NCBI GenBank assembly: GCA_051002895.1
Contig: JBPCLW010000042.1
Location: forward strand, 54,293 to 118,292
Direction: 5' to 3'
Source of the DNA: Candidatus Dormibacteria bacterium
Lineage (GTDB): Bacteria; Chloroflexota; Dormibacteria; Aeolococcales; Aeolococcaceae
Length of the DNA: 64,000 bases
The notes under the pieces are model-generated. The model ran no database searches, had not been told where the DNA came from, and was given only the letters and a program-made list of their open reading frames with translations. This document shows positions 2,255-46,211 of the stretch, piece by piece. The translations under genes were made by a program, and so were the position numbers. Each line of letters opens with the position of its first letter. The first letter of the stretch is position 1.

Positions 2255-3405
2255 GGGCGCAGACGCCGGATCGTCCGCCGGTAGCCGCGGAGGTTCCGCT
2301 TCGTCTCGCTGATCGCATCGCCGCCGAACTTCTCCAACACGGCAGCCGCCAGCGTCAGCGCGAACATTGCCTCCGCCACGACACCTCCGGCGGGGACGAC
2401 GCAGATGTCGCTGCGCTCGTAGTGAGCGTTGACCTCGGTACCGCTGCGCACGTCGACGCTCCGCAACGGAGAAAGCAGAGTGGAGATTGGCTTGAAATGG
2501 ACGAGGGCCCAGACCGGTTCGCCGTTACTGATACCGCCGGTGATGCCGCCGGCGCGGTTGCTGAGATGGCGGAAGGAGTTGCCGTGAAATGCAGGAGAGT
2601 CGTGGACGGCGGAACCAGGCGACGCCGCCGCCAGACACCCGGAACCAATCTCCACCGCCTTCACGGACTGAATGCTCATGAGCGCCTGGGCGAGCAGGCC
2701 GTCGAGGCGTCGGTCCCACTGCGAGTACGTGCCGATCCCGGCCACAACTCCACGGGCAACGACGCATGCCGTACCTCCGAGGGTATCGCCCCGCTGCCGG
2801 GCGTTGTCAATGGCGGCGACCATCTGCGCGCTCGCGGCAGCATCCGGACAGCGCACTGGGGATGTCTCGACCTCGCGACTATCGACGTCATCACGATGCT
2901 CGATGACGACATCGCCGATCCGTTCAGCCCACGACGAGATGGTCACGCCTAGGGGCGCCAGCAGGGCGATGGCGACAGCGCCAGCAGCAACGCGAGCCGC
3001 CGTCTCCCGCGCACTTGCCCGCTCCAGGACGTCGCGAGCGTCGTCGAGATCGTACTTCAGCATCCCGGCGAGGTCCGCATGGCCGGGGCGGACGCGAGTG
3101 ACCCGCTTACGGGTGAAGCCGGCCGCCCCGATCTGCATGGGCCCCTTCCAATTCTCCCAGTCGCGATTACGGATCACCAATGCAATCGGTGAGCCCAGGG
3201 TGCGCCCCCCGCGTACCCCGCCGACGATCTCCACCTGGTCCTGTTCGATGAGCTGACGCTTGCCCCGCCCGTGGCCCCCCTGGCGGCGCCGCAGGTGGGG
3301 ATCGATGTCGCGGCGACCGTCGAGTGGCAGCCCCGCCGGCACTCCCTCGATGATCACCGTCAACTGGGGCCCGTGGGACTCTCCGGCGGTCAGATAACGC
3401 AACAC
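2251..3405 (-). CDS. aroC: Chorismate synthase
   Basis: 384 aa, MLRYLTAGESHGPQLTVIIEGVPAGL..., RPGHAD, GGISNG motifs. Confidence 0.95.
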   Translation of the reverse strand: MLRYLTAGESHGPQLTVIIEGVPAGLPLDGRRDIDPHLRRRQGGHGRGKRQLIEQDQVEIVGGVRGGRTLGSPIALVIRNRDWENWKGPMQIGAAGFTRKRVTRVRPGHADLAGMLKYDLDDARDVLERASARETAARVAAGAVAIALLAPLGVTISSWAERIGDVVIEHRDDVDSREVETSPVRCPDAAASAQMVAAIDNARQRGDTLGGTACVVARGVVAGIGTYSQWDRRLDGLLAQALMSIQSVKAVEIGSGCLAAASPGSAVHDSPAFHGNSFRHLSNRAGGITGGISNGEPVWALVHFKPISTLLSPLRSVDVRSGTEVNAHYERSDICVVPAGGVVAEAMFALTLAAAVLEKFGGDAISETKRNLRGYRRTIRRLRP

Positions 3406-10413: not shown

Positions 10414-12998
10414 CGGTGCACAGCCTCACCAAGGGAAGAACTGAGGACCTGTCTCGCCTCACCGCGACGGGCAGCGTCCTTCAGGCTTCCCCGGGCAAAC
10501 TCGGGGCGCCCCCCGCCCCGACCGCCCGATGCCTCCGCGGCGGAACGTACCAGGTCTCCCGCATTGACACCTGCGGCGCGCGCATCAGGGCCGACCTTCA
10601 CCGCGATCACGTTCTCACCGAGAATGACTGCAACTCCGCGGCCGGCGACATGTTCGGCGAAGAGGCGATCTATGGTGGCACTGACCTCGTTGGTGTCCAA
10701 CGAGAATCGGTCGACAAGAGCCACTCGGTAGCCTGCAACCTCGTGCACCTCAGCCGCAGCCAACGCCGCCACGACCTCGGTTCCTCCTCCGCTCTGCTGA
10801 CGACGCCGGAGGTCACGATTCTGATCGAGGAGTTGCTGCACCCTCACCGCCACCTCTTCGGGACGCGACTTCAGGGCACGGGCCGTTTCCCGCAACGTCC
10901 GCTCATTCTCTGCCCAGTGCAGTTCGGCCGCCTCGCCGGTGACCATGTCGATGCGACGGATGCCCTGTCCCACAGAGGACTCCGAGAGGATGATCGCCGC
11001 CCCGACGTCGCCGCTGCGATGCACGTGCGTACCGCCGCAGAGCTCGCGCGTCCAGCCGCCAAAGTCGACGACGCGGACCTTCTCAGCGTAGCTCTCGTCG
11101 AGAAGAGCGATGGCCCCACTGGCGCGAGCATCGCTCAGCGCCATCAGGTCAACGGAGCGCTCGAAATTGCGGCGGATGGCGGCGTTGATTCGACCCTCAA
11201 TATCACGCATTTCCCGGGCAGTCAGGGGCCGGGTGAAGGAGAAGTCGAAGGTTGCGTGGTCGGGACCCACGTAGCTTCCCCGCTGCACGATGCCGTCCCC
11301 CAGCACCTCGCGGAGGGCTCGATGGAGGAAATGGGTGGCGCTGTGATGGCGCGCCGTCTGAGCCCGCCGAGCAGCGTCGACGAGGGCCTCGACAGAGGCT
11401 CCGGAGAGCAGCTCGCCGGCGGTCACCCGAACCCGGTGCAGCCGGGCCTCGCCCTGATGGACAGTGTCTAGGACCGCCGCATGTCCTCCTTCCCAGCAAA
11501 TCTCGCCGCGGTCTCCGACCTGCCCACCACCCTCGGCGTAGAAGGGGCTGATGTCGAGGAGGACCACGTCCTCCTCGCCGACCACGAGGCGATCGCGTTC
11601 TGGCTCGACGCCGATGCGCGACACGGTCGCGGCACCGCGGAGATCCTCGTAGCCCACGAATGTGGTGGTTGGCAGCACCGGCCCACTCTCGAAACCAACG
11701 CGCACGCCGACCGCCTTGCTCGACGCACGTTGAGCGGCGAGAGCGACGTTGAATTCTGAGCGATCGACCGTCGCGCCCCGCTGAGCTGCCATCTCCATGG
11801 TTAACTCGATGGGGAAGCCAAAGGTATCGTACAGACGGAACGCATCGCCGCCCGGAATCACCGTGGTGCCCCGGTCGAGTAGCGCCTCGAGCCGCGCAGA
11901 CCCTGCGTCCAGGGTTCGAGCAAAGCTCTCCTCCTCGTGACGCAGCGTCTGCTGGACCATCCCGGCATGCTCACCAACCTCGGGGTACACCTTCTCCACC
12001 GAGCCGGCGACGTCGTCGACGGCATCGGCCAGACCACCCTGGAGACCGACCCGACGGCCGTGGAGGGCAGCCCTGCGGATCACCCGCCGGAGCACGTAAC
12101 CGCGGCCCTCATTGCCGGGCACGACGCCGTCGGAGAGCAGGAAGACGGCGGCCCGGGCGTGGTCGGCGAGAATGTTGAGCGCTCGACGACGATCTGGCGT
12201 CTCCGTAGTGCCGGCACTGCGCCGCTCGAACCCGGCGACGATCGGCGTGAAGATGTCGGTGTCGTAGTTACTGCGTACGTTCTGGATCACGCTGGTGATC
12301 CGCTCCAGGCTCATCCCCGTGTCCACGGTGCGCTTGGGCAAGAGCGTCCGGGCGCCATCCTCGGCTTGGTCGAACTCCATGAACACCAGGTTCCAGATCT
12401 CCAGCCAGCGGTTCCCCCCGCACTCGTCATCGGGCCGGCAGTCTGCGCGGCCGCAGGAGCACGGAGAGCCCCAATCCCAATAGATCTCACTGTCGTAGCC
12501 GCAGGGACCGGTCGGACCCGCCTGCCACCAGTTGTCAGTGAAGCGGCAGATGCGGTCCTTGGGCACCCCGATCCGGCCCGTCCACAGCCGCTCTGCCTCG
12601 TGGTCGTCCGGGTAGATGCTCGGCCACAGACGCCCCGGATCGAGGTCCCACTCGCGGGTGAGAAGCTCCCAGGCGAACTCTATGGCTCCCTCTTTGAAGT
12701 AATCGCCGATCGACCAGTTGCCGAGCATCTCGAAGAACGTGTGGTGGGTGGAGTCGCCCACTGATGCGATGTCATCAGTGGCCAGCCCAGAACCGCGGAA
12801 GCATTTCTGACATGACGCCAGCCGCGGGGTGGGGGAAACCTTCTCGCCGCTGATGTACGGCTTGAGTGGCACCATCCCGGCCACGGTGAAGAGAAGCGAC
12901 GGATCGTCGTGGGGAATGAGCGAGGCGCTGGGGAGCAGGTGATGCCCCCGGTCCTCGAAGAAGCGGAGAAAACGCTCCCGGATCTCTGGGCTGCGCAC
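10410..12998 (-). CDS. alaS: Alanyl-tRNA synthetase
   Basis: 862 aa, MRSPEIRERFLRFFEDRGHH..., editing-domain HHSATH and CGGTHV motifs, C-terminal DHHA1-like region. Confidence 0.97.
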   Translation of the reverse strand: MRSPEIRERFLRFFEDRGHHLLPSASLIPHDDPSLLFTVAGMVPLKPYISGEKVSPTPRLASCQKCFRGSGLATDDIASVGDSTHHTFFEMLGNWSIGDYFKEGAIEFAWELLTREWDLDPGRLWPSIYPDDHEAERLWTGRIGVPKDRICRFTDNWWQAGPTGPCGYDSEIYWDWGSPCSCGRADCRPDDECGGNRWLEIWNLVFMEFDQAEDGARTLLPKRTVDTGMSLERITSVIQNVRSNYDTDIFTPIVAGFERRSAGTTETPDRRRALNILADHARAAVFLLSDGVVPGNEGRGYVLRRVIRRAALHGRRVGLQGGLADAVDDVAGSVEKVYPEVGEHAGMVQQTLRHEEESFARTLDAGSARLEALLDRGTTVIPGGDAFRLYDTFGFPIELTMEMAAQRGATVDRSEFNVALAAQRASSKAVGVRVGFESGPVLPTTTFVGYEDLRGAATVSRIGVEPERDRLVVGEEDVVLLDISPFYAEGGGQVGDRGEICWEGGHAAVLDTVHQGEARLHRVRVTAGELLSGASVEALVDAARRAQTARHHSATHFLHRALREVLGDGIVQRGSYVGPDHATFDFSFTRPLTAREMRDIEGRINAAIRRNFERSVDLMALSDARASGAIALLDESYAEKVRVVDFGGWTRELCGGTHVHRSGDVGAAIILSESSVGQGIRRIDMVTGEAAELHWAENERTLRETARALKSRPEEVAVRVQQLLDQNRDLRRRQQSGGGTEVVAALAAAEVHEVAGYRVALVDRFSLDTNEVSATIDRLFAEHVAGRGVAVILGENVIAVKVGPDARAAGVNAGDLVRSAAEASGGRGGGRPEFARGSLKDAARRGEARQVLSSSLGEAVHR

Positions 12999-32256: not shown

Positions 32257-34665
32257 TCACGTGGTGGTGGCGCCCACCTTGACGCCCTTTGGAGGTCGGT
32301 ACTTGCAGCCCGGGTAGCCCGAGCAACTGACGAAGGGACCGAAACGACCCTGACGCGTCACCAGCGGCTTGCCGCAGTCCGGACAGGCGTCGCCGGTTGG
32401 TTGCGCGGGCGGCCCGGCGACAGCCTGTGTCGTCCCCGGCCGGATGTACTTGCAGCCGGGATAACCGGTGCAGCCCACGAAGCTCCCACGCCGTGATGAC
32501 TTCCGGGCCATCGGCTTGCCGCAGTCAGGGCAGGCGCCGAGTTCCTCGTTGGCCGGTGGCGGACCGTCGGCAGGTTGCGCCCCCTCCTGCGGCTTGATGT
32601 ATCGGCAGGTCGGGTAGCCGCTACAGCCAACGAACGGCCCGCGACGCGACTGCCGCTCGACCAAGGGCTTGCCGCACTGAGGACAGTCCTCCCCCGTCGT
32701 CGCGGACACCTTCTTGTCCTTGATGTATGAGCAGTCGGGATAGCGCGAGCAGCCCGTGAACTCGCCGAAGCGGCCCTCGCGGACCACGAGCTCCCCGATC
32801 TCGCACTCCGGGCACATCTCCCCCGTCGGCGTCACCGGAACTTTGACCCGCTGCATGTCCGTCTCGGCCTTCTCAACGGTGGCGTTGAAGGGGTCATACC
32901 ACTCCCGCACAGTCGGCTCGTAGGCCCGCTCCCCCACCTCGACGGCATCGAGTTTCTTCTCCAGCCCAGCGGTAAAATCGACATCAACGATGTCGGGAAA
33001 GTGCTCGCGGAGCAGACTATCCACGGTTGTGCCCAGAGCGCTGGGATGGAGACGACGCTCCTCCTGGCGCACATAGTTGCGCTCCTGGATGACCTCGATG
33101 GTCGGCGCGTATGTCGAGGGTCGGCCAATGCCACGCTCCTCGAGTTCCTTGATCAGCGAAGCCTCGGTGTAGCGAGGCGGTGGCTGGGTAAAGCGCTGCT
33201 CAGCAACCGCCTGCCCGCACGGCAGGGAGTCTCCGACGTTGAGGGCGGGGAGGCGTTCCTCCTTCTCCTTGTCGTCGTCACCGCGCTTCCACACCTTCTG
33301 AAAACCGTCGAACTTCAGCACCGATCCAGTGGCTCGGAAAGCGTGGTCACCGGCCACGATGGTGGCGCGGGTGTTGAGGAAGCGCGCTGCCGCCATCTGG
33401 CTGGCGACAAATCGCCGCCAGATGAGTTCGTAGAGCCGGAGCAGCGAGGGGTCGACGTGATCGGCGATCTGCGCCGGGGTACGGCGGACATCGGTGGGAC
33501 GGATCGCCTCGTGGGCGTCCTGGATGTTGTGAGTGGCCGGCCCCTTCTTCGCCTTCGGCTGGCCCTTGCGGACGTAGCCCTCGCCGTACGTCTGGGCGAT
33601 GTGCTGCGCTGCGGCATCGCGGGCCACGTCGCTGATCCGCGTCGAATCCGTTCGCATGTAGGTGATGAGACCGACCGGTCCAGAGCTGCCGAGGTCCGCT
33701 CCCTCATAGAGTTGCTGGGCGATGCTCATGGTGCGGCGAGGCGAGATGCGCAGCCGGGTGCTGGCATCCTGCTGCAGGGTGCTCGTCGTATACGGGGGTA
33801 GCGCGTTGCGAGAGATCTCGTTGCTCTCCACCCCCTCGACGACGAACGGCGGCTGCTGAGTGTCGCGCGTCGCATCAACGATCAGCGTCGGCTGCCTGTT
33901 GCTGCGACGCACCTCACCGTCCGGGCCAAGAGCCTCCTTGGTCCGCGGCTCTAGCGCGGTGAAGTTGAGGGCGGCGAGGATCTCCAATGCCTGCGCCTGG
34001 GTGCCGAGTTCCGCCCTCTCAGGCTCGGCGGTGGCGCGACGGCCGAGATATCGTGCCCGGAAGTCGCTCTCCTGCTTGCGCAGCAGGGCGTCCAGGGACC
34101 ACGTCTCCTTGGCGATGAACGCCGCAATCTCACTTTCCCGATCGACGACGAGGCGCACCGCCACCGACTGCACTCGCCCCGCGGAGAGGCCCTTGCGAAC
34201 CTTGCGCCAGAGCAACGGACTGAGGCGGTAACCGACGAGACGATCGATCACCCGGCGCGCCTCCTGAGCGTGGACGAGGTCGCGGTCGATCTTCCGGGGA
34301 TCCTTGAGAGCTGCACCGACCGCCGCACTGGTGATCTCGTGAAACACCACACGGTCAGGATTCTTCAGATTCAGGGCCTCGGCAAGGTGCCAGGCAATCG
34401 CCTCTCCCTCGCGGTCGGGGTCGGCGGCGAGCAGGGTGACGTCAGCCTTCTTCACTGCGTCACGGAGTTCCTTGATCTGCTTCTCCTTCCCCTTGATCAC
34501 GATGTAATCGGGGGTGAAGCCGTTGTCGACGTCGACGCCGATTTTCGACTTGGGGAGGTCGCGGACGTGCCCCATCGAGGCTTTGACGGTATAGCCGGCG
34601 CCAAGGAACTTGGCGAGGGTGCGCGCCTTGCTCGGCGACTCGACGATGATCAGGCTCTTGGGCAT
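32257..34665 (-). CDS. topA: DNA topoisomerase I with four C-terminal zinc-ribbon repeats
   Basis: [17 protein letters not shown]... Toprim domain, catalytic region YMRTDSTR, then 4 copies of CP.C(G/E)...GRFG.F.GCS.YP.C.Y. Confidence 0.96.
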
Positions 34666-34790: not shown

Positions 34791-35666
34791 TCACCCGGTG
34801 GCCCGGAGCACCAAACCTCCCGGCAAGCTCCGCACTGCCCCGGCCAGTTCCAGAGCAGAGAGCCGGGCTGCAGTCTCGGCAGCATCGAGGCCGAGGAGAG
34901 CAGCCACCGTATCGGGGTGGATCGGATCCGCGCCAAGGCGGTCGAGGAGGGTGCGCAGTGGTGCCGAGAGTGCGGTGCGACCACCTTGGGCACGCGTTGC
35001 CGGGACAACGGTGAGACCGAGTTCAGGGATCGACTCGACGAGGTCTTCAACTCCGAGGTAGGGCCGGACACCATCGCGGATGAGGAGATTGCAGCCGTGG
35101 TGCTGCTCGGCGCGGATCGAGCCGGGGACGGCGAGCACCTCACGACCAAGATCGGCCGCCCAGCGAGCGGTGCTCAGAGCCCCGCTGCGTTCCGTGGCCT
35201 CGACGACAACGACGACCCTGGCCAGAGCTGCGATCAGGCGGTTCCGCCGGGGAAAGAGGAACCCCTCGGGAGTTCGCTGCGACGGATACTCGGTGACCAG
35301 CAGGCCACCGGCGCGGACGCGCTCGCGAAGCCCGCCATGCTCTCGCGGATAGTCGATGTCAAGGCCGCAGCCGAGCACGGCAACCGTGCCTCCCCCGGCG
35401 TCGAGTGCTCCCCCATGAGCCGCCGCATCAATGCCGCGCGCAAAGCCACTGATGACAGTGACGCCGAGCCCGATAAGTTCGGTAGCGATGCTGCGGGCGA
35501 TCTCCAAACCTCCCAGCGTTGCCCGTCGCGCGCCGACGACGGCAACGCCCAGGTCGCCGAGCCGCCCCGAGCCGTCCAGCCAGAGTCCCGCAGGAGGCTG
35601 CGTCAGGTGTTCCAGTTCGGGCGGCCATCCCTCGCCGTGGCGCGGTAACCAGCGACGGCCGGTCAC
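34791..35666 (-). CDS. dprA: DNA processing protein DprA (Rossmann-fold core, short form)
   Basis: VAVVGARRAT..., ISGFARGIDAAAHGGAL, AVLGCGLD..YP, VVVVEA..RSGALSTARWA. GTG start overlaps the stop of the comM 3' fragment. Confidence 0.85.
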   Translation of the reverse strand: MTGRRWLPRHGEGWPPELEHLTQPPAGLWLDGSGRLGDLGVAVVGARRATLGGLEIARSIATELIGLGVTVISGFARGIDAAAHGGALDAGGGTVAVLGCGLDIDYPREHGGLRERVRAGGLLVTEYPSQRTPEGFLFPRRNRLIAALARVVVVVEATERSGALSTARWAADLGREVLAVPGSIRAEQHHGCNLLIRDGVRPYLGVEDLVESIPELGLTVVPATRAQGGRTALSAPLRTLLDRLGADPIHPDTVAALLGLDAAETAARLSALELAGAVRSLPGGLVLRATG

Positions 35667-36307
35667 GTCGCCACCGCCGTCTCACCGCGGTGGCGCAGGG
35701 CTTCGGCGAGGTGGGTGTCGGCAACCGCATCGCACGCATGCAGGTCAGCGATGGTGCGCGCGACTCGAAGGACGCGAACGTACCCCCGGGCGGACAGACC
35801 CAGACGCTCGCCCGCCCGGCCCAGCATCCGGCGCGCGGCCGGCTGCAGAGCACAGGCGACGACGAGACGGTCGCCGGTGAGCAGCCGGTTGAGCCCGCCG
35901 CGCTCAGCCTGCCGTTGCCGAGCGCCGCTGACCCGAGCACGGATCGCCTCCGACGATTCCGGTGCGCGGGCTGCCAGGAGAGCATCCGCGGGGACTCGGG
36001 GAACCGCGACGTTGAGATCCATGCGATCGCGAAGCGGACCGGAGAGCCGACGGTGGTACGCATTGAGCTGACGGGCATCGCAGCGGCAGAGACGCGTGGG
36101 ATCCCCGAGATGACCGCAGGGACACGGATTGGCTGCGGCCACGAGGGTGAGTTCAGCGGGCATCGCCACCGACCCGCGCGCCCGGGCGATGACGATGCGG
36201 TGTTCCTCGAGCGGTTGGCGCAACGCCTCGAGGTGGGCGCGGGGAAATTCGCAGATCTCGTCGAGGAAGAGAACGCCGCCGTGCGAGGGCGTGCAACGTT
36301 GACGCAT
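35663..36307 (-). pseudogene. comM: comM/yifB 3' fragment (C-terminal ~205 aa of Mg-chelatase-like competence ATPase), preceded by 9 element-derived codons
   Basis: MRQRCTPSH|GGVLFLDEICEF...LRQPLEEHRIVIARA...LVAAANPCPCG...RFSGPLRDRMDL-like motifs. The ATG at 36307 lies in the element's terminal repeat. Confidence 0.85.
36284..36307. repeat. Left terminal inverted repeat / att arm of the element
   Basis: The plus strand GTGCAACGTTGACGCAT (36291..36307) matches the reverse complement of 44281..44299 (GTGTTACGCTTTGACGCAT) at 15 positions, with 2 mismatches and a 2-nt indel. Confidence 0.6.
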
Positions 36308-36358
36308 GAGACTATCGGCGGCCGATCCACAGCTCTGAGCGCGTCGTCCCCCGACCCC

Positions 36359-37267
36359 TCAGCAGCCAGGCCGCTGGAGTGGGTCCCCCTCGTGACGTGC
36401 GCCCCCATCGTATTCATTGAAGAATCCTGCGTTCATTCGCACGTCCTCCTCGATTCGCTGCACCACGTCCACCCCGAGGCCATACTCACGGAGCAGGTCG
36501 CAGAGATGTTCGCCATCGATCAACTCCACGGGTGGCGCTCCATCACGACTGGCCTCGTTTTGTGCATCACGAGTGAAGCTGCCCGTGGTGATCAGCAGGC
36601 CCTTCTCTCCGCGCCCCGCCATGGCGCCCCGGAAGTCACGGACCGAGGCGGAGGACACAGAGCCCTTGTAGCGCTTGCACTGGAAGTAGATGGGGAAGCT
36701 GACGAGCGATAACCGGTAGACGCCTACGCCGTCGATGCCTCCGTCGCCACTCTTGCCCGTCACGGTCACGTTGACAAATCCGGCTTCGCGAAGGATGCGT
36801 TGAGCAAGCCTCTCGAACCCGTCGGGCGGAAGTTCGAGCAGCCGACTGATCAGCGTGTCTTTCCAGGTTGCTTCCGCCTGTTCGTCAGCCTCTTCCTCGA
36901 CGGGGACTGCTCGCCGCTCCTTGCGACGCCGAAGGAGATCGGCACGCCATGCCTTGTTTTCGTTCTCCGTCGCCTTCTCGTCGAGGGCCAGGCCGTGATC
37001 GGTAATCGCCCATACCCCCCGGCTGCTGTTGACGAGGGCGCCAATTCCTTTGAGATGAGTCCGCGCCCAGTGGAGCCGATACTCGAGTTCTGACATCCGG
37101 CCGTTCCCATGCGGCACTGCCTGCAACTCCTCGGAGTAGGCCTCGTCTTCGAGGACCTTCTCAGTCATCTCTCTGACCGTGGCGGACCCCCCTAGGGCCT
37201 TGGTCGCCTGGAGGGCGGGCCACATGAAGACGTGATACGGAGGAATGGATAGCTTTGGATCGGGCAT
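36359..37267 (-). CDS. mrr: Mrr-family type IV restriction endonuclease (Mrr_N winged helix + Mrr_cat)
   Basis: N-terminal IPPYHVFMWPALQATKALGG...; catalytic core GKSGDGGIDGVGVYRL....IYFQCKRYKGSV...FRGAM...GLLITTGSFT. Confidence 0.8.
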   Translation of the reverse strand: MPDPKLSIPPYHVFMWPALQATKALGGSATVREMTEKVLEDEAYSEELQAVPHGNGRMSELEYRLHWARTHLKGIGALVNSSRGVWAITDHGLALDEKATENENKAWRADLLRRRKERRAVPVEEEADEQAEATWKDTLISRLLELPPDGFERLAQRILREAGFVNVTVTGKSGDGGIDGVGVYRLSLVSFPIYFQCKRYKGSVSSASVRDFRGAMAGRGEKGLLITTGSFTRDAQNEASRDGAPPVELIDGEHLCDLLREYGLGVDVVQRIEEDVRMNAGFFNEYDGGARHEGDPLQRPGC

Positions 37268-37454
37268 TGCCGCGTAATGCTAGCCCAGGGTTGGATACGG
37301 ATTGCTCAGGCTCAGACGGCCGAGATGCGATGGGGAGCAGCATCGGCTCGACGGCATCTCAGCACGCTAGGGCTCCCCAGGGCGCTTGCCGTCGGAGCCG
37401 CCGCTCCTAGAATCGATTTCCGACTCCGCCTACGTCGCTGGAGACGTGATAGCC

Positions 37455-37484
37455 GCTCAGACGGCAAATAAAGCCCGTCTGAGC
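37455..37484. terminator. Perfect 10-bp stem hairpin between terS and mrr (possible intrinsic terminator or insulator)
   Basis: GCTCAGACGG-caaataaagc-CCGTCTGAGC. No clear U-tract on the coding (minus) strand; CGTTTCC follows on the plus strand. Confidence 0.35.
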
Positions 37485-37548
37485 CGTTTCCGGGCCTCCT
37501 GTGGCGTACATCCAGCCCTGCGGCGATCTGAGATCGAAAGGCAGCGAG

Positions 37549-38006
37549 CTAGCCGCCGGAGAGCAGCCTGTCGAGCTCGTCCAGGGGTTCGTCCTTTCCG
37601 GTGACGATGCGACTGCGCGACGTCGGCGAAAGGCCCAGGGCGTCCGACAGGTGAGCGATCTCCCGTCCCGTGTCCCGGTACACCCGCCACGCCGGACGCG
37701 ATACCTCGCCGCCGCGGGCATTCGTGGTTGTGTACCCGCCGGTCGAGAGGTCCGTCCGGGCCTGCCGGTGATGCCAAACCATCCCCGCGAAGACTTCCAG
37801 GAGGGCTCCATCTGGCCCGCAGGAGACCCCATCCCCTCCAGTTCTGCGGCGACCTCGCAGAAGATGTGTCGCTGACCGGCGGGCATCCCACGCGGCGGTG
37901 TAGGGGTAGCCGTTCGCGGCTTCGGGGCGCGGCGGTTCACCCGCGACGGACGCGTCTCGCCGCGCAAGACTTTGAGTTCGACAGGGGCGGGGCGCCTTCC
38001 TCTCAT
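37549..38006 (-). pseudogene. Phage terminase small subunit (P27-family-like), interrupted by one frameshift
   Basis: The N-terminal frame reads MRGRRPAPVELKVLRGETRPSRVNRRAPKP...MPAGQRHIFCEVAAELEGMG. The family-like C-terminal part (...GPDGALLEVFAG...NARGGEVSRPAWRVYRDTGREIAHLSDALGLSPTSRSRIV) continues in another frame. The switch is near the G-run at 37822..37839. Confidence 0.6.
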
Positions 38007-38275
38007 ACGATCAGCCTAACCCACCCCTCGACGTTTTCGGGATCTCGGTACGGGCTCTTGGCTGCTGAGGCCGTCGGCCCGCACGGATTTTGCGTCCGCG
38101 GCATGCCCCCACCCCGCCCTGACGAAGCGGATCCGGGGTGAAGCTCCGAGGACCGTATGCACGCGGTTACGCGTCCGTCGTGAACATCTTTCGCGAGAGC
38201 ACAACGACACAGGCAAGAAGGAAAGACGCGGCTCCCGAAGCATCACCAACGGAAGCCGCACCTACTTGCTTACCT

Positions 38276-39157
38276 TTAGGCCGCTGGCCCGAGTCCAGTG
38301 ATGACGACGACGCCTGGGCTGTTGATGACCTGAACGTCGAAACGACTGACAACGCGCAGACCGATCGCGTCGAACTCCGCATAGCGTTCGGCGAGAACTA
38401 ACGCCTGCCCTTCCAAATCGACGCCCAGGTGAACCTGTGACGAATCGATGAGGGCAGCAGTTCCGAGCGGCATGTTCGGCGTCGGCACGACAGGACGGCT
38501 CAACAGCATGTCGGTGCTTTGCTGCGAAGGATTGGGAACTAGCAGCGAACGGCCGAGCGAGTCCTTCTGCTTCATCAGAACGCCGAGTGTCCGCGTGTTG
38601 ACCAACCACACGTCGGGGTCTGCGGCTGCGTCCAGCGAAGTCGTGAGGGCGTCGGTGAACACGTTGAGACCGGAACCGCTTGGATATACGGTCGTGTTGC
38701 TCGCGTCGATCGTTGTTCCGGCGAGCGGGAGAAGTCCAGTGATCCCCGCACCGGAGTTGCCTGCGAGCAACGCGGTGTCAACCACCTTCGTGAGTCGCTT
38801 GGTGATGATCTCGGTCGCGGCACTCAGCGGATCGGCTGCCGCGCTGCGGATAGTCTCGTTGGAGATCAGGACGATGATCTTCAGGCCCTTCAGTCCCCGC
38901 GGGAAAAGCACAACCTCGTTTGTGGTCGCAGCCACCGGGATGATCTCGTCGCCTGCCGCATGGAAGGCCGTGGTCGGGTTCACGGGAACGTCCAACGTGG
39001 GTAAGTGGAGTGGCCCGCTGATTGAGTGCGAGTGGATCGACTCCAGCGACAGAACGGCGGAGTCCCCCACAAGCGGCGAGTAGATGATCGCGTCCCATTC
39101 CTCGGCTGTGAGTTGATAGCCGAATCCGCTCGTCTGCGGTACCAAAGAGCCTGGCAT
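38276..39157 (-). CDS. HK97-fold phage major capsid protein (no delta domain)
   Basis: 293 aa; ...KRLTKVVDTALLAGNSGAGITGLLP...VWLVNTRTLGVLMKQKD.LGRSLL...RPVVPTPNMP.GTAALID... is typical of the Phage_capsid family. GAGG RBS lies 8 nt upstream of the ATG. Confidence 0.8.
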   Translation of the reverse strand: MPGSLVPQTSGFGYQLTAEEWDAIIYSPLVGDSAVLSLESIHSHSISGPLHLPTLDVPVNPTTAFHAAGDEIIPVAATTNEVVLFPRGLKGLKIIVLISNETIRSAAADPLSAATEIITKRLTKVVDTALLAGNSGAGITGLLPLAGTTIDASNTTVYPSGSGLNVFTDALTTSLDAAADPDVWLVNTRTLGVLMKQKDSLGRSLLVPNPSQQSTDMLLSRPVVPTPNMPLGTAALIDSSQVHLGVDLEGQALVLAERYAEFDAIGLRVVSRFDVQVINSPGVVVITGLGPAA

Positions 39158-39255
39158 GACAGTTACCTCGTGTCGTTAGACGTTGAGGGTCTGCCATCCC
39201 GGCTCACCCGATTGCGACGGCCATCCCGGCTTGTGTCGCGATCTCAGTGACAAGC

Positions 39256-39723
39256 CTACTCCCCCCGGCTCGGTTGTGCTAGGCCCCTGCGAGCGAGCGC
39301 ATCACCGAACGAGATACCTGGCCCGCCCGTCGGCACCACCTGCTGCCCTCCACCCGGCAACGGCCTCGGCATTTGAGGACGCTTCGTTCCGGGGCGCTTG
39401 CCGACGATCGCCTGAACCGCTGCAGTGACCTTGTCGGGGTCGACGTCGCCCGCCTCCGTGAGCATCGAAGCGACTTCCACGCCATCGAGCCAAACGTCGC
39501 CGGACTCCGACAGTGCGGCCGACGCAAGTCTCTCGATCTCGCGCCTGTGAAGCGCCTCGACGCGAGCCTCAGCAGCCGCTAGCCTCTGCTCACGCTCCGA
39601 CAGCTTCGCAACGATGTCTGAGTACCTTTTGCCCTCTCTCGGCTCCGGTGGGTCGCTGGTAGGCGGAGCGGGAACGTCTGCGGGCGGCGGAGTTGGTTGC
39701 GGCTCTGGTGTTGGGGTAGGCAT
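39256..39723 (-). CDS. Scaffolding-like protein (Pro-rich N-terminus, coiled coil)
   Basis: 155 aa directly upstream of the capsid gene. It has a coiled-coil segment (SEREQRLAAAEARVEALHRREIERLA) then ...DVWLDGVEVASMLTEAGDVDPDKVTAAVQAIV, resembling actinophage scaffold proteins. GGGAG RBS. Confidence 0.5.
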   Translation of the reverse strand: MPTPTPEPQPTPPPADVPAPPTSDPPEPREGKRYSDIVAKLSEREQRLAAAEARVEALHRREIERLASAALSESGDVWLDGVEVASMLTEAGDVDPDKVTAAVQAIVGKRPGTKRPQMPRPLPGGGQQVVPTGGPGISFGDALARRGLAQPSRGE

Positions 39724-39727
39724 CGAG

Positions 39728-40402
39728 CTATCTCCCTCTGCGCACGATGCGCGACTGACGTTGTTGTTGCGGTCTGCGCGGATGCAACTTGCCCGCTCGC
39801 ATCCCGCTCTCGATGGTCATTCTGATCTCGGCGTCCTCAAGTCCGATCTGCTCGGCCGTCGCAGTCAACGCAGTTCGGACGCCCTCGTACGTCAATAGAC
39901 CGCCCGCGACGATCTCGCCAAGTGCCAGTGCCGCGTTATTGAGCATCGAGTTGCGCTCGCCCTCACGCGCCGTAGCGAGCTTCTTCAACTCAGACATCAT
40001 CGCGGCATTCGCCCAGCGTCGATCCCTTCTGTCGGCCTCGGCTAGCGGGCCGAGTTTCGCTCGTCGTGATTCGACATCGTGAAGCCCTGACGACCCGCTG
40101 ATGGACCCGAGGACTATTCGGAGCAGCCGGTTCAGTTCCGGGAAACGATGATGTTGCTGTGGCTTCCGGGTGAAGTCGCTCACAGTCGTCTGAATCAACA
40201 CCCCAACCGGTGTATCGACCCAGCTACGGTCGTGAGGCAACTCTGGAGTGTCGGCAATCACATCGCCAGTCGTGATGTCGATTGCGAAGGCGTGAACCTC
40301 GACGCTCGCGCTTCGCGCATCGGGATCGGCCGCTAGTGTCTGCGCAAGGCGTTCGTTAGCCTCATTTGTGCGGCGTCTGCGAGCGAGTTCGTCGCTTCTC
40401 AT
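39728..40402 (-). CDS. Hypothetical replication-associated protein with primase-C-terminal-like helical module
   Basis: The C-terminus GERNSMLNNAALALGEIVAGGLLTYEGVRTALTATAEQIGLEDAEIRMTIESGMRAG resembles the helical module I recall on actinobacterial plasmid/phage primase-polymerase proteins. No catalytic prim-pol domain is visible. Confidence 0.45.
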   Translation of the reverse strand: MRSDELARRRRTNEANERLAQTLAADPDARSASVEVHAFAIDITTGDVIADTPELPHDRSWVDTPVGVLIQTTVSDFTRKPQQHHRFPELNRLLRIVLGSISGSSGLHDVESRRAKLGPLAEADRRDRRWANAAMMSELKKLATAREGERNSMLNNAALALGEIVAGGLLTYEGVRTALTATAEQIGLEDAEIRMTIESGMRAGKLHPRRPQQQRQSRIVRRGR

Positions 40403-40653
40403 CGTTGTTTCTCTGAATCACGACGTGGTGTGTCACCGCGGACCTCGGCGGCGCGTCTCCACGCCGAAGGAACGACGACGTGAAACATCTTCTCGGTGTG
40501 TGCCTCGCCCGTTGTGCGATCGACCTCCGTCACCTCGACCATCTGCTGGTCGAGCGCCAGGAGTCGTGTTGGCACAAATATGCGATCGCCGATACCCGCG
40601 TCATACGCGGGTGGATCGTTGCCTTCGTCCGGCCAATCTTTTCGCTGCGTCAT
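40399..40653 (-). CDS. Hypothetical protein (84 aa)
   Basis: ORF translationally coupled on both sides (4-nt overlaps). No family recognised. Confidence 0.45.
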   Translation of the reverse strand: MTQRKDWPDEGNDPPAYDAGIGDRIFVPTRLLALDQQMVEVTEVDRTTGEAHTEKMFHVVVPSAWRRAAEVRGDTPRRDSEKQR

Positions 40654-40847
40654 GTGACCTCCTGCTGTTGGTCGAGTTCTGCTGCTATCGCGTGCCGGAC
40701 CGCGTCCGGCTGTAGACGGACTAGTTGAGCGACAACACGCGCCAGGGCTTCGAGCTCGGCGCGCGTCGCGGCAGTCTCGGCAGCGAGCGCTGCGTGTTCG
40801 CGTGCATGGGCGACCAACGCTTCGGCAGTGTCCAGGTCAACCGTCAT
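40650..40847 (-). CDS. Hypothetical helical protein (65 aa)
   Basis: Ala/Glu/Leu-rich helical ORF, first gene after the iteron region, coupled to the next ORF. Confidence 0.45.
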   Translation of the reverse strand: MTVDLDTAEALVAHAREHAALAAETAATRAELEALARVVAQLVRLQPDAVRHAIAAELDQQQEVT

Positions 40848-40950
40848 CGGAAACCCACCCTTTGCGATTGGTGCGATCGCCTGTGGGGAGCCCTAGCGTT
40901 AGTCGCGGTTGACGATGCTGCTCCCCAAGCCGCGGGACGCGACCAGAACT

Positions 40951-40975
40951 GCAACCCCCTTTCAGTAGGGGTTGC
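40951..40975. other. Hairpin adjacent to the iteron array
   Basis: GCAACCCC-ctttcagta-GGGGTTGC, an 8-bp perfect stem. Confidence 0.5.
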
Positions 40976-40978
40976 ATT

Positions 40979-41117
40979 GGTTCCCGCTACCCCGGTTCCG
41001 AGTGGTTCCGCGATCGGTTCCGTACTTGAAATCGATAACGGTTCCCAGCCGTTCCTGGTTCCCGAGGAACCCCCAAGAGACGGGAGCGGTTCCGTATTCA
41101 GAATCGGTCTTGGTTCC
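40979..41117. repeat. Iteron-like array: 8 direct GGTTCC copies plus 1 inverted (GGAACC) in 139 bp, a candidate replication origin
   Basis: GGTTCC at 40979, 40994, 41004, 41016, 41040, 41057, 41088 and 41112. GGAACC at 41066 and a near-copy CGTTCC at 41050. The array ends 4 nt before the AAA ATPase stop codon (41122..41124), in a non-coding gap. Confidence 0.6.
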
Positions 41118-41121
41118 CGGC

Positions 41122-42102: not shown

Positions 42103-42156
42103 CGATCACCGGCTGAGGTCAGGACGATTTCGCTAAACTTCTCGTGCCGCGAATGA

Positions 42157-42178
42157 CCCGGGTGTCTCCGCACCCGGG
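42157..42178. terminator. Hairpin between the regulatory ORFs and the ATPase gene
   Basis: CCCGGGTG-tctccg-CACCCGGG, an 8-bp stem 4 nt downstream of the 59-aa ORF stop on the minus strand. No U-tract. Confidence 0.3.
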
Positions 42179-42181
42179 CCT

Positions 42182-42361
42182 TCACGCTACCTTCCTCCGT
42201 CGATGAGACGTAGGCGGCTCACCTACGGATCGAATTCGCTCGGCCAGTTGGTGTAGTGCAGCGGGAGCTTGGATCGTCAGAGGCAGCCCCTGCGAATCGC
42301 GCTCGGCTGCAACCATGCGACGGAGTTCGTCCGTATCGGGCACGCGGGCCGCGACGCTCAT
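42182..42361 (-). CDS. Hypothetical small protein (59 aa)
   Basis: ATG 42361 overlaps the XRE gene stop (ATGA). No family recognised. Candidate accessory regulator or directionality factor. Confidence 0.4.
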   Translation of the reverse strand: MSVAARVPDTDELRRMVAAERDSQGLPLTIQAPAALHQLAERIRSVGEPPTSHRRRKVA

Positions 42362-42576
42362 GAAGCCACCCCGGACGGCTCGCACAGAAGGTCAGCAACC
42401 TTGCAACCGATGCAGCGCGCCATGAGCACGATGGACGGACGGCTCGGCGTGCCGCGTCCTGTCTCCCAGCGATACACCGCCTGCACGCTGCGGTTGCACG
42501 CGACCGCTAGATGTTCACGCGCTAGATTTGCGGCCTCGCGGCGAGCGCGAAGTCTGGATGGCGAAAAATCGGACAC
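42358..42576 (-). CDS. XRE-family helix-turn-helix transcriptional regulator
   Basis: LRARREAANLAREHLAVACNRSVQAVYRWETGRGTPS...LMARCIGCKVADLL is an HTH_3 pattern. GTG start with GAGG 7 nt upstream. Confidence 0.7.
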   Translation of the reverse strand: MSDFSPSRLRARREAANLAREHLAVACNRSVQAVYRWETGRGTPSRPSIVLMARCIGCKVADLLCEPSGVAS

Positions 42577-42579
42577 GGC

Positions 42580-42597
42580 GACACCTCGCTAGGTGTC
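42580..42597. promoter_or_regulatory. Perfect palindrome over the XRE gene RBS (candidate operator or SD-sequestering hairpin)
   Basis: GACACCT-cgct-AGGTGTC. On the minus strand the AGGTGTC half contains the GAGG Shine-Dalgarno. Confidence 0.4.
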
Positions 42598-42700
42598 TGC
42601 CTGTCACGGATCTCGACTTCAGGATCGTCTAAGTCTCAGCGAGATGCTGGAGCGAGCGGCGATCTGGACTGTGCAGACGTTGATCGAATTAGCTACGTGC

Positions 42701-42782: not shown

Positions 42783-44282
42783 CTAGACGCGCCACATGAC
42801 GCGCACGCGCGCACGGTCGTATGTGTTGCGCCCTCTCGTGGCCGGTGCGACACGCACCTCTGCGATGAGGTCGCGGATGGTGGCGCGCCGTTGTGGGTCG
42901 TCGAACTTGTCCCATGCCGACCGCAAGGGACGGGGGGTGCAGTGCAACGACTCGCGACCGCGGAGTTCGTCGTAGTGCCGCTGTGCGCGTCCCAGCCGGT
43001 CGTTGATGCCGACACGCATGGCGGACCATTCAGACCGCGAGAACTCGCCCGCGCCGAACGCGGTGGCCAGCCCGTTGAGTTCCTGCTCCAACGCAGCGAC
43101 AGCATGCAGCGCCTCGCTCTGAGCCGTGTCGGTATCGGCGTCGAGGATGCGGTCCAGTGCGCCGTCGTCGACGGCGATCAGCACGCGCTCGATGACGTCA
43201 GACTCAAGTTCGTCAGCGCCGACGCGAATGCCGCCGCAACCGTGGAATCCTGGCCCCTTCGCGCAGATGTAGCAGGGACGGGCAGCGCGGACGATGTTGC
43301 CTTCGCTGTCGCGCCAGGCCGCTGCCGGACGTGACACCAACCGAGCGTCGCAGATGCCGCAACGCGCGACGCCGCCGCCGAGAAGGTGTGTCCTACCCGC
43401 TGACCACGCGGCACGTCTCGCGGGGTTGGAGAGCAGCCGACGGAGAGCATCGCTGTCAGCGGGCCTGATGATCGTCGCCCACTCGACGGTCGTCGAGGTG
43501 ATCGGTGCAAGTCGGCTCGATCGGGTGTGAGCCTCGCGACGCCCATGCTCGCGACGCCCGCTGATACGCGCCGACAACAGCAAGTTGCGGAGCACCGTTG
43601 GAGTCCATGGCGCGCCCTTGACGGTGGCGACGCCGCGCTTCTCGAAATCTCGGCACAACGAGCGGATGGCCTCGCCATTGAGCACGCGTCTCGCCGCCTC
43701 GCGCACTACCTCGGCCTCGGCGTCGCGGAGCGTCTTGCGATCGTCGTCATAGCCGTAGGGACGGGTGCCGCCGCCGCTCAATGTGCCTGCCTCCGCGATT
43801 TCTTTCATCTTGCGGCGGACGCGGTCGCTCTTGTGCTCGCTCTCTCCGCGCGCTACCGCACCAACGATCCGGGCGATCATCCTGCCGGTGGACTTGGTGA
43901 GGTCAAGCACCCCAGCGCGAGCCGTCTCAATAGTGACCCCGGCCGCTTCAACGATGGTGATGAATCGTTCCAGCTCAATCGGGGAACGGTGCAGCCGGTC
44001 AGGATGCCAGGCGACCAGTAGACCAACGTCGCCGGCCGTGATGTCCCCGAGCAGCCGTTCGTACTCCGGTCGGGTCTTGCCGCTGAACGCGCTGATGTCG
44101 TTGTCGGAGTACACCCGGATGCGCTCTTGTGGGTAGCCCCGCCGTCCACAAAGAGGGCGGCAATCCTCCTCTTGCCGAGCTACGCCGAGTCCAGCGCCCT
44201 CGCGGTCATCGGAGATCCGGACGTAGATCGCGGCGACGCCGCGCGCCGCCTCCGGCTCGGCTTCGGCGGGTGGGGTCATCAT
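42783..44282 (-). CDS. Large serine recombinase (integrase)
   Basis: AAIYVRISDDREG...ARQEEDC (catalytic Ser region), resolvase domain, recombinase domain and a Cys-rich zinc ribbon (CGICDARL...CYICAKGPGFHGC), then a coiled-coil C-terminus. ATGATG start at 44282..44277. Confidence 0.9.
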   Translation of the reverse strand: MMTPPAEAEPEAARGVAAIYVRISDDREGAGLGVARQEEDCRPLCGRRGYPQERIRVYSDNDISAFSGKTRPEYERLLGDITAGDVGLLVAWHPDRLHRSPIELERFITIVEAAGVTIETARAGVLDLTKSTGRMIARIVGAVARGESEHKSDRVRRKMKEIAEAGTLSGGGTRPYGYDDDRKTLRDAEAEVVREAARRVLNGEAIRSLCRDFEKRGVATVKGAPWTPTVLRNLLLSARISGRREHGRREAHTRSSRLAPITSTTVEWATIIRPADSDALRRLLSNPARRAAWSAGRTHLLGGGVARCGICDARLVSRPAAAWRDSEGNIVRAARPCYICAKGPGFHGCGGIRVGADELESDVIERVLIAVDDGALDRILDADTDTAQSEALHAVAALEQELNGLATAFGAGEFSRSEWSAMRVGINDRLGRAQRHYDELRGRESLHCTPRPLRSAWDKFDDPQRRATIRDLIAEVRVAPATRGRNTYDRARVRVMWRV

Positions 44283-44303
44283 GCGTCAAAGCGTAACACT
44301 CGG
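44281..44303. repeat. Right terminal inverted repeat / att arm of the element
   Basis: ATGCGTCAAAGCGTAACAC (44281..44299) is an inverted copy of 36291..36307. It contains the comM 5'-fragment stop codon (44286..44288) and part of the integrase start. Confidence 0.6.
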
Positions 44304-45185
44304 ATGGGCCAGGGAGATCTCGCCGGGCTGAGCCAGGCCACTGCCACCGCCGACCAACCCGGCGCGGGAAACCGAGTGATGGGGAGCCCGGAACGGTGGC
44401 CTCAAGCTCGTGGCCGAGCGGTCGGCCAGGCGTCCCTTCAGGGAGTACAGGGCGGCGACCTCAAGGGCGTCCTCGGGCTCGAGATCCGGAAGGAGCGAGG
44501 CAAAGGCCCGAGCCAGCATCGTCTTGCCTGCGCCCGGTGGCCCGAGTAGGAGGACATTGTGTCCACCTGCGGCGGCGATCTCAAGCGCGCGTTTCGCCGT
44601 TGCCTGACCGCGGATCTCGGCAATGTCGGGCTCGGGCGCGCCCGTGGTGGCCTTCATCGGCGTCGCCATCGGGAGTTCGACGCGTCCCTCGAGATGCGCG
44701 ACGGCGCCGGTGAGATGCTCGACACCAACTACATGGAGCCTGTCGACCAGCGCGGCCTCGGCCCCGTTCTCAGCGGCGACAAGGAGCTGCCGCACCCCAT
44801 GAGCCGCCAGACAACGTGCCATCGCCAGGACACCGGCAACGGGCCGCACCCTGCCATCGAGGGCCAGTTCGCCGATACAGGCAATGCCGTCCAGCCGGAG
44901 CTGTTCGCGTTCTGTGCACAGAATTGCCAAGGCCATGCTGAGATCGAATCCAGAGCCTTCCTTGGGCAATTCCGCCGGCGCCAGATTGACGGTCACCCGC
45001 TGCGCGGGGAGCCCGAACCCAGCGTTGCGCAGAGCTGCCCGCACCCGCTCCCGGGCCTCAAAGATGGCGCGATCAGCGAGGCCCACCACGGTAAAGCTGG
45101 GGAGCCCGTTGGCGACGTCAGCCTCCACCAGCACGGGGACACCGCTGATGCCGAGCACAGCGCAACTCATAGCAGTCGCAGTCAT
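44286..45185 (-). pseudogene. comM: comM/yifB 5' fragment (N-terminal ~294 aa) plus 5 element-derived codons
   Basis: VPVLVEADVANGLPSFTVVGLAD..., GFDL.MALAIL, RGQATAKRALEIAAAGGHNVLLLGPPGAGKTMLA, ...PFRAPHHSVSRAGLVGGGS..PGEISLAH|PSVTL*. Confidence 0.88.
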
Positions 45186-45192
45186 ACATCAC

Positions 45193-45198
45193 AGTATA
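45193..45198 (-). promoter_or_regulatory. -10-like hexamer TATACT 7 nt upstream of the comM ATG (possible leaderless transcript)
   Basis: Minus strand ...ATAGGATATACTGTGATGTATG. No Shine-Dalgarno and no convincing -35. Confidence 0.25.
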
Positions 45199-45262
45199 TC
45201 CTATGGTCCGAAGCGGGGCACGGGGCGAAGCCCTGAAGGTCCGGGAAACGCTGCACGCGACC

Positions 45263-45631
45263 TCACCCACCGACAGCGCTCACGATGTGGTCAATCCGCA
45301 ACGGATCCAAATCTGCGTCGAGCAGAACGGCTACGACGTCGATCCGGCAACGCCTCCCCCGCCGTCCGGTCGCAGCCATGTAGGCGTGGAGCAGTGCCCG
45401 CAGCTTCTCCTGCTTGCGCCAGTCCACCGCCTCCTGGGGCGGACCGAAAGCAGCACTGCGACGCGCCTTGACCTCGACGACGACGAGGACGTCGCCATCC
45501 TCGCAGACGATGTCGACCTGACCCAGCCGGCAGCGCCAATCGAGATCGAGGATGCGCAGGCCACGCTCACGGAGATACGCCACCGCGGCGGCCTCACCAG
45601 CGGGACCCGCGCGCTCCCTGCTGGAGCGCAC
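45263..45631 (-). CDS. yraN: YraN family endonuclease (UPF0102)
   Basis: GEAAAVAYLRERGLRILDLDWRCRLGQVDIVCEDGDVLVVVEVKARR...FGPPQEAVDWRKQ...RIDVVAV. Confidence 0.8.
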   Translation of the reverse strand: MRSSRERAGPAGEAAAVAYLRERGLRILDLDWRCRLGQVDIVCEDGDVLVVVEVKARRSAAFGPPQEAVDWRKQEKLRALLHAYMAATGRRGRRCRIDVVAVLLDADLDPLRIDHIVSAVGG

Positions 45632-45668
45632 GCGATCCGCCGGTGCCCCTCGTGCTTCCCCGGAGGGC

Positions 45669-46211
45669 CTAGGCGTGCTCCCCCTCGACGCCCACCGCGG
45701 CCGCTTCAGCCTCCGCGTCGGCGCGCACCGCGGCGGGATCCGCCTCGGTCAACGTCTCCTCCACCGCGTCAGACCGGGCCTCGGCGAGATCCTCGTCGGG
45801 AACCAGCACCTGCTCGTCCGGAGCGGCACCGGAGCGACGCACCATGACATCGCCGCCCACGGGGTTGCGGCGCTCGCGGATGCGGGCCCGCTTGCCGACC
45901 TTGTCACGGAGATAGAAGAGCTTGGCGCGGCGCACGTCACCGTGACGCAACACCTCGATCTTGTCGAGCCGCGGAGAGTGCACGAGGAATGTGCGCTCGA
46001 CACCAACCCCGTGCGAAGCGATGCGACGCACGGTGAAACTGGCGCCAATCCCCGTCTTGCGCTGGAGACCGATGACGATCCCCTCGAAGACCTGAATGCG
46101 CTCCCGGGTTCCCTCGACGACCTTGGCGTGCACCCGCACGGTGTCTCCGGGTCGAAGGACCGGGACCTCCTTCTTCTCCTGCTCACGACGCAGGAGATCA
46201 ATGACATTCAC
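45669..46211 (-). CDS. rplS: 50S ribosomal protein L19 with ~60-aa acidic/Ala-rich C-terminal extension
   Basis: [31 protein letters not shown]...[18 protein letters not shown].... Confidence 0.95.

Follow-up and report, generated by a model that had tools for sequence, protein, structure and literature searches.

In this study, we analysed a window of 64,000 nt from a Candidatus Dormibacteria contig (JBPCLW010000042.1 of assembly GCA_051002895.1, positions 54,293 to 118,292, forward strand) and found that the competence gene comM of this uncultured soil bacterium is interrupted by an island of 8,023 bp, which was very probably inserted there by its own large serine recombinase through the joining of attP and attB sites at a central CA dinucleotide. 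The gene, a member of the YifB/ComM family on the minus strand, is broken at the codon for His294. In coordinates of the window, used throughout, the gene fragments and the insert are:

35663 to 36283, minus strand: comM 3′ fragment, from the His294 codon onward (H-GGVLFLDE...) to the stop codon, matching Pfam Mg_chelatase (profile positions 104-205) and Mg_chelatase_C
36284 to 44306, all genes on the minus strand: the whole integrated island, 8,023 bp including one copy of the core; contigs of two metagenomes (X7 and X8) skip the same 8,023 nt
44305 to 45185, minus strand: comM 5′ fragment, residues 1-293 plus the CA of the His294 codon, matching Pfam ChlI (2e-40) and Mg_chelatase (profile positions 1-109)

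The 3′ part of comM lies in an open reading frame (35663 to 36307, minus strand) that begins MRQRCTPSH-GGVLFLDE..., and the 5′ reading frame (44286 to 45185) continues five codons (PSVTL) into the island as far as a TGA at 44288..44286, ending ...PGEISLAH-PSVTL*. When the fragments are fused at the His codon, the product is a protein of 499 aa that matches TIGR00368 (YifB family) in a single stretch over residues 7-492, with 518.5 bits against a cut-off of 362.4. Downstream of comM lie dprA (34791 to 35666) and topA (32257 to 34665), as in relatives. The G+C content of the island is ~0.61-0.64, against 0.66-0.73 in its flanks and ~0.62-0.73 across the 32-49 kb part of the window. In 80 out of 80 ComM loci from other genomes the motif at the insertion site is unbroken, reading PGE(I/V)SLAH.GVLFLDE in most and showing small variants in nine; the closest ComM matches to the window among these loci are from Candidatus Dormibacterota (60-65% identity). 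The insertion site is in the most conserved part of comM, beside the Walker B residues, and ComM is disrupted by the island. ComM is a helicase that promotes the integration of heterologous transforming DNA, and its gene is a recurrent target of mobile elements (PMC11472951). In one Dormibacterota genome (L015, 852..2845) the ComM match spans 1,994 nt for ~492 residues with the attB motif intact, which suggests an insertion or frameshift elsewhere in the gene. Just upstream of comM in the window, 45153..45711 is a polymorphic stretch, where contigs of the metagenome runs X1, X2, X4, and X6 skip 45154..45710 and have 14 other letters (TACGCGCGAGCCTG).

The boundaries of the island were determined by comparison with contigs from eight public metagenome runs (X1-X8) that are nearly identical to the junction region of the window. 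Long contigs of the sediment samples X1 and X2 traverse both junctions with zero differences, those of X3-X5 extend across one or both, and those of X6 across the junction with the comM 3′ fragment. By contrast with these occupied sites, one contig of 5,332 nt from a rock metagenome (X7) and one of 866 nt from a soil metagenome (X8), which are unrelated and come from different studies, join 36281 directly to 44305, skipping 8,023 nt and leaving two letters ambiguous. The ambiguous bases at the joint are TG on the plus strand, that is, CA on the coding strand. Before 44305 these contigs read CAGATCTCGTCGAGGAAGAGAACGCCGCCG, which is window 36252..36281, and after 36283 they read GGCCAGGGA(G/T)ATCTCGCCGGGCTGAGCCAG, which is the window from 44307 onward; on the coding strand the unoccupied site is CTGGCTCAGCCCGGCGAGATCTCCCTGGCC-CA-CGGCGGCGTTCTCTTCCTCGACGAGATCTG. 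The parts of the attB site in the window are the following, none of them assigned to a strand:

36252 to 36281: attB half-site, B′ arm (comM 3′ side), the same 30 letters as precede 44305 in X7 and X8
36282 to 36283: first copy of the core, reading TG on the plus strand and CA on the coding strand, at the joint of 36281 with 44305
44305 to 44306: second copy of the core, again reading TG on the plus strand and CA on the coding strand
44307 to 44336: attB half-site, B arm (comM 5′ side); the 30 letters after 36283 are identical in X8 and differ by one SNP in X7

On either side of the CA, the adjoining base of the attB arm is not that of the attP arm (C/G before, C/T after), and the overlap is therefore exactly 2 bp. 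Since these are the only bases common to both junctions, a recombinase that needs an identical overlap would cross over only there. The original prediction had placed the crossover at the CA of the His codons (36282..36283 and 44305..44306), had reconstructed attB as ..TCCCTGGCC CA CGGCGGCGTT.., and had pointed to empty comM sites in relatives as the comparison to make. The empty sites of X7 and X8 bear this out, with the junction where it was predicted and an attB that is identical letter for letter, and both the 2-bp ambiguity at the empty joint and the symmetry of attP about the CA agree with the proposed crossover. The flanks of the X7 and X8 contigs are ~96-99% identical to the window, and their hosts are sister strains without the island, not products of its excision. 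Coming from sister strains of another population, these sites establish the boundary rather than present-day excision. The presence of the island in X1-X6 and its absence from such closely related strains indicate that it was gained or lost recently. Excision is predicted to leave the scar ..TCCCTGGCC-CA-CGGCGGCG.. and a circle with the junction ..GCACGCCCTCG-CA-TCCGAGTGTTACGC... No back-joining attP contig of an excised circle was seen in any of the runs, which consist of assembled contigs, a form of data that drops rare forms, and IMG/VR, when searched for the attP junction, contained no match. A loose end at 44309 in X1 and X5 had the look of a second element near the same spot; it disappeared on focused re-alignment of the junction and was set aside as the partial match of an unrelated contig.

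With the centre set by the empty site, each end of the island was found to retain one arm of attP, as had been predicted:

36284 to 36309, no strand: P arm of attP, integrase-distal; one copy of the repeat makes up its outer 11 bp (36299..36309, TTGACGCATGA), and the arm is missing from the empty-site contigs
44279 to 44304, no strand: P′ arm of attP, integrase-proximal; its outer 11 bp (44279..44289, TCATGCGTCAA) are the second copy

Set in register, the ends read AGTC-TCATGCGTCAA-CGTTGCACGCCCTCG-CA-TCCGAGTGTTACGCT-TTGACGCATGA-TGAC. The attP site contains a perfect 11-bp inverted repeat, with TCATGCGTCAA at -26..-16 and the complementary TTGACGCATGA at +16..+26, exactly in register about the CA. 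Overall it is symmetric, ungapped, at 16 out of 30 positions; the inner 15 nt of the arms contribute only five of the matches, so that the symmetric part is the outer 11 bp. Because a generic inverted-repeat search, which returned 205 pairs in 9 kb, did not single out the end repeat, a position-specific null was needed, and the length of the repeat would not by itself make it significant; its position and register do. As a control, 30-mers drawn at random from the window were paired 2 million times about the centre that the empty site independently defines; an in-register run of at least 11 had a frequency of 2e-5 and at least 16 matches in 30 a frequency of 3.4e-3. Elsewhere in the window, ~53092 is the sole place with a contiguous in-register palindromic run of at least 11 (here 12), for a 2-nt centre and 30-nt arms. 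The strings that the original prediction had given for the left end (GTGCAACGTTGACGCAT, 36291..36307) and the right end (ATGCGTCAAAGCGTAACAC, 44281..44299) are present at these positions, and its view of attP as an imperfect palindrome of ~50 bp centred on the crossover dinucleotide holds, with a repeat similarity that exceeds the random control (p ~2e-5 for the in-register 11-bp run). Its description of the ends as imperfect inverted repeats is correct as far as it goes; the 15 matches that it counted need a 2-nt gap, and the ungapped 11-bp repeat in register describes the ends better. A shifted zinc-ribbon motif was sought by eye in the attB arms, where there was no convincing match.

The only recombinase gene of the island lies at the end next to the comM 5′ fragment:

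42783 to 44282, minus strand: large serine recombinase (integrase), 499 aa, apparently intact; Resolvase 2.5e-25, Recombinase 4.8e-10, PHROG 95 integrase 3e-78

Its catalytic domain (PF00239, 2.5e-25) covers residues 17-166 and includes the nucleophilic Ser24, in the motif YVRISD, which is invariant in an alignment of 27 homologues; the PF07508 (Recombinase) match of 4.8e-10 passes the cut-off. The zinc-ribbon domain Zn_ribbon_recom (PF13408) was found at 1e-3 and 19.7 bits, below the curated cut-off of 25.3 bits; the homologues have PF13408, and Cys308, Cys311, Cys340, and Cys349 are invariant in the same alignment. Homologues cover up to 100% of the integrase, and its best matches in the PDB are large serine integrases, including the phiC31 integrase. 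Pfam and PHROG searches revealed no other recombinase and no transposase in the 8 kb, and no recombination directionality factor was identified in the island. Large serine recombinases cross over by a 2-bp staggered cut at the centre of attP and attB. Taken together with the data above, this mechanism makes the CA the only compatible crossover position.

Single-protein scans for close relatives of the integrase in metagenome and viral contigs found nothing, and relatives were then recovered with a profile built from the 27 homologues. Many of the recovered loci have comM fragments directly upstream of int, and in two cases (proteins P0026 and P0052) gene callers had fused the integrase homologue to the ComM N-terminus. 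Integrases 43-65% identical to that of the window are found, in one orientation or the other, at the very codon of comM that is broken in the window, giving 13 junctions with the window included. At all 13 the break is at the same His codon and the ATG of the adjoining gene, which is int except in L098, is exactly 22 nt from the core; the consensus of the int-proximal arm over the 13 junctions is CnCnAGnnTTACACTnnnACnC. At 14-20 nt from the core, the two arms of attP in the window, L084, and L081 have the outer motif GT(C/G)AA.G in mirror image, and L084, of which both ends are known, again has an overlap of exactly 2 bp, CA. Five islands are co-oriented with comM (the window, L089, L086, L133, and L150) and eight are inverted (L081/L082, L084, L090, L095, L096, L098, and L100). 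Read in the direction of int, the core is CA in the five co-oriented islands and TG in the eight inverted ones. It is self-evident that a host CA is TG on the complementary strand; it is not self-evident that the arms stand on opposite sides of this dinucleotide. Since the int-proximal arms are homologous and equally spaced on opposite sides of one host dinucleotide, the attP cores of the two groups must be flipped. As has been shown for Bxb1 and phiC31, the core alone sets the polarity of integration, which predicts the CA/TG pattern of the comM islands. To judge from their sequences, these islands would represent a natural polarity flip, with orientation set by the non-palindromic core.

Some of the recovered loci depart from this arrangement. 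An island of ~9.5 kb with an integrase 41% identical to that of the window (L136) is inserted at the same comM position, where the host codon is Asp (GAY) and GA replaces CA; its junctions (2460..2600 and 11980..12110) have an 11-bp common core, ACGCTCGCGGA, and its int starts 46 nt away. Seven loci (L085, L094, L097, L164, L087, L101, and L111) encode integrases 45-58% identical to that of the window and do not adjoin comM. In L111 a similar int-proximal arm (..CCAGTGTTACACTATATGCC-ATG) stands beside a different host sequence, and its retention there suggests target switching within the integrase family. No described comM-targeting serine integrase was found in the literature searched, which did not extend to the target-gene histogram of the LSR survey (10.1101/2021.11.05.467528).

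We propose that the integrase recombines a quasi-palindromic attP of ~54 bp, TCATGCGTCAACGTTGCACGCCCTCG-CA-TCCGAGTGTTACGCTTTGACGCATGA on the coding strand, with the attB partner ..GGCGAGATCTCCCTGGCC-CA-CGGCGGCGTTCTCTTCCTCGACGAG.., which encodes GEISLAH-GGVLFLDE next to the Walker B motif. By analogy with the known mechanism, both sites would be cut in a staggered manner at the central CA, and a 180-degree rotation of subunits would be followed by religation; the symmetric arm segments would be the putative contacts of the integrase. The expected outcome is one attP arm per end and one CA per junction, with no other duplication. Since CA is non-palindromic, the orientation would be fixed, with int pointing the same way as comM. 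The start codon of int (44282..44280, minus strand) lies inside the P′ arm, 22 nt from the core, so that integration places int directly behind the truncated comM 5′ fragment and in frame with it, the CA and the 22 nt adding up to 24 nt. In the window a TGA two codons upstream of the int ATG separates the two; L086 and L133 lack such a stop codon and are predicted to encode a ComM-N::integrase fusion of 772-776 aa (P0026 and P0052). On the other side of the island, the distal arm has a mirrored ATG (36307..36305, minus strand) in frame with the comM 3′ fragment and with no obvious ribosome-binding site; it is a possible start for a candidate C-terminal ComM product of 214 aa (MRQRCTPSH-GGVLFLDE...).

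Other explanations of the locus were considered. Insertion by a DDE or Tn7-like transposon, as with AbaR in Acinetobacter, or by a tyrosine recombinase, with the inverted repeats as transposon ends, would fit with the known insertion of Tn7-like AbaR islands, among other elements, into comM (PMC11472951), and inverted repeats do occur at the island ends. Yet the 8 kb contain neither a transposase nor a tyrosine recombinase, the repeats are set back by 16 nt from the termini, just 2 bp are duplicated at the flanks, and the same codon is used by many islands whose only common end-proximal gene is the serine recombinase. This explanation is largely refuted, and we regard it as exceedingly improbable. 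There is a small chance that the boundaries and the CA are right and that the sequence near the int start is mainly a signal for int expression, not an integrase half-site. In 9-12 of the 13 int-proximal arms the block TTACACT (+9..+15) is conserved; the distal arms have no mirror image of it. Its TAnnnT pattern, 7 nt ahead of the ATG, is that of a -10 element, and its role may lie in expressing int and not in binding. An expression signal would nevertheless leave unexplained the mirrored GT[C/G]AA.G on the non-coding distal arm (the window, L084, and L081); moreover, no sigma-70-like site was called at the junction, and the reconstructed attP fails even relaxed criteria, its TTGCAC-N18-TACGCT scoring 6/12. 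In line with this, the idea that attP rebuilds a -35/-10 promoter for a leaderless int mRNA is unsupported, no passing site being present at the integrated junction or in attP.

The island might also be a fixed, decaying, and immobile remnant whose att sites are historical scars. Both the frameshift of its small terminase gene (described below), seen in the window and in the independent X1-X3 assemblies, and the failure to see a circle junction in assembled contigs or IMG/VR are compatible with this. Against it, the integrase is full-length with all invariant residues present, both att junctions are undamaged and symmetric, occupancy varies among near-identical strains, and a terminase defect would hit packaging, not integration or excision. 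We consider a remnant unlikely; the island, inserted by its serine integrase, may still be capable of movement.

The original prediction had called the island a prophage. It is indeed an integrated element bearing phage genes; a full prophage it is not, since its size of 8,023 bp and the absence of portal, large terminase, tail, and lysis genes (by Pfam and PHROG searches of the island) make 'satellite-like integrative island' the more fitting term. Besides the integrase and two small or unassigned proteins, it encodes:

36359 to 37267, minus strand: Mrr-type restriction endonuclease, cargo at the island end; Pfam Mrr_cat 9e-31, Mrr_N 1e-18
37549 to 38006, minus strand: small terminase (P27/Terminase_4 type) with a 1-nt frameshift at ~37827; PHROG 83 match at residues 1-60 only
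38276 to 39157, minus strand: HK97-type major capsid protein; Pfam Phage_capsid 2.4e-17, PHROG 10 major head protein 8e-26
39256 to 39723, minus strand: head-scaffolding-like protein; PHROG 4708 7e-7, no Pfam match
41122 to 42102, minus strand: AAA_25 replication ATPase (RepA/primase-helicase-type); Pfam AAA_25 1e-23, PHROG DNA polymerase/primase and primase families

Its structural genes are limited to those for the capsid, the scaffold-like protein, and the frameshifted small terminase, which falls short of the complete gene set of a temperate prophage. Read through the frameshift, the small terminase covers profile positions 4-96 of 98 in PF05119 (4.6e-13). An additional A follows 37827 in a related copy from X8; X1-X3, assembled independently, show the same letters as the window. 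This frameshift suggests that the island may be decaying. The layout, a small island with an integrase, a replication module, and head genes and with no full virion set, is that of a satellite and recurs in L081-L084, L086, and the contig of P0007. Judged by its genes, the island is a putative phage satellite. The relatives are 8-10.5 kb in size and follow the same plan with other cargo at the end (TIR_2, DUF4760, or DUF6941), some of them adding a prohead protease or a DUF3631 primase-associated protein. The genes next to the island ends vary (L084 11512..12366; L081 17633..18190 and 11536..11940; window 36359..37267), and this position, holding TIR_2, DUF4760, DUF6941, or Mrr, looks like a putative slot for defence cargo. 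In IMG/VR, no relative exceeds 44% identity and none adjoins comM. In X1 and X2, and partly in X3, X4, and X6, the Mrr gene with its 3′ end (36399..37226 of the window) is also represented by short variant contigs at about half the depth, which differ by clusters of substitutions and by CT inserted after 37191. Each of these samples seems to contain either two haplotypes of the Mrr cargo region or else a related second copy.

Among characterized systems, the integrase of Bxb1 resembles that of the island in being a large serine recombinase of ~500 aa with a quasi-palindromic attP of ~50 bp and a non-palindromic 2-bp core. Ghosh, Kim and Hatfull reportedly found in 2003 that the central dinucleotide of Bxb1, non-palindromic and of 2 bp, alone sets orientation. 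The best PDB match of our integrase, 9iu2 ('Integrase', 500 aa, E = 7e-9), is a distant relation, which may, to guess from its length of 500 aa, be the Bxb1 integrase. Bxb1 differs in its target, groEL1 instead of comM, and in its carrier, a 50-kb phage instead of an 8-kb island, and the start codon of int inside attP sets the island apart. Like the island, Bxb1 integrates inside a host ORF and disrupts it (PMC8092301). The comM-island family, with homologous attP arms that have CA or TG relative to int, would be a natural equivalent of an experiment on phiC31. Smith, Till and Smith are said to have switched the polarity of phiC31 integration in 2004 by changing the core dinucleotide. The phiC31 integrase itself has another target and matches ours only in the catalytic-domain region (E ~2e-4). 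The integrase of the Listeria phages A118 and phi10403S inserts in comK. This is likewise a serine integrase splitting a competence gene, here a regulator (comK) rather than the ComM helicase, in another phylum and carried by a full-size phage; the A118 integrase is the subject of PMC3556126. In Acinetobacter, the Tn7-like AbaR/AbGRI islands and other elements in comM often carry defence systems (PMC11472951). They have in common with our island the target gene and even its domain (the Mg-chelatase domain of comM), with Mrr as cargo here and TIR_2 in L084, and differ in moving by Tns-type transposition instead of site-specific serine recombination with a 2-bp overlap. The PICI, capsid-forming PICI, and P4-like satellites are similar in size (8-10 kb), in combining an integrase and a replication module with a few head or packaging genes, and in having no portal, large terminase, tail, or lysis genes. 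The usual satellites have a tyrosine integrase, whereas the island has a serine integrase and its head module consists of capsid, scaffold, and TerS only, which makes it a putative relation of theirs at most.

In summary, the island is a clean but ordinary example of the known serine-integrase mechanism and leaves the understanding of serine integrases unchanged. It provides a fully specified and computationally well-supported set of integrase, attP, and attB from an uncultured phylum (its relatives being Dormibacterota), and the position of attB in a highly conserved stretch of a near-universal gene makes the set a candidate tool for orthogonal integration, and a marker with which to find similar islands. 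More tentatively, and with doubt prevailing, the results may be read together as pointing to an undescribed family of capsid-encoding satellites in Dormibacterota and neighbouring soil phyla, in which integration rewires an int that starts inside attP and the CA/TG flip made two lineages. If this were true, the comM promoter would drive a co-oriented int, which in some cases would be expressed as a ComM-N::Int fusion, and in the circle int would follow the operon of the island itself; two lineages with opposite regulatory wiring would occupy the same universal comM motif, with different defence cargo (Mrr and TIR) at their ends. With the island described here, serine integrases join the mobile elements that target comM and so inactivate the transformation helicase, and the comM islands provide a case from nature in which polarity is switched through the core dinucleotide.
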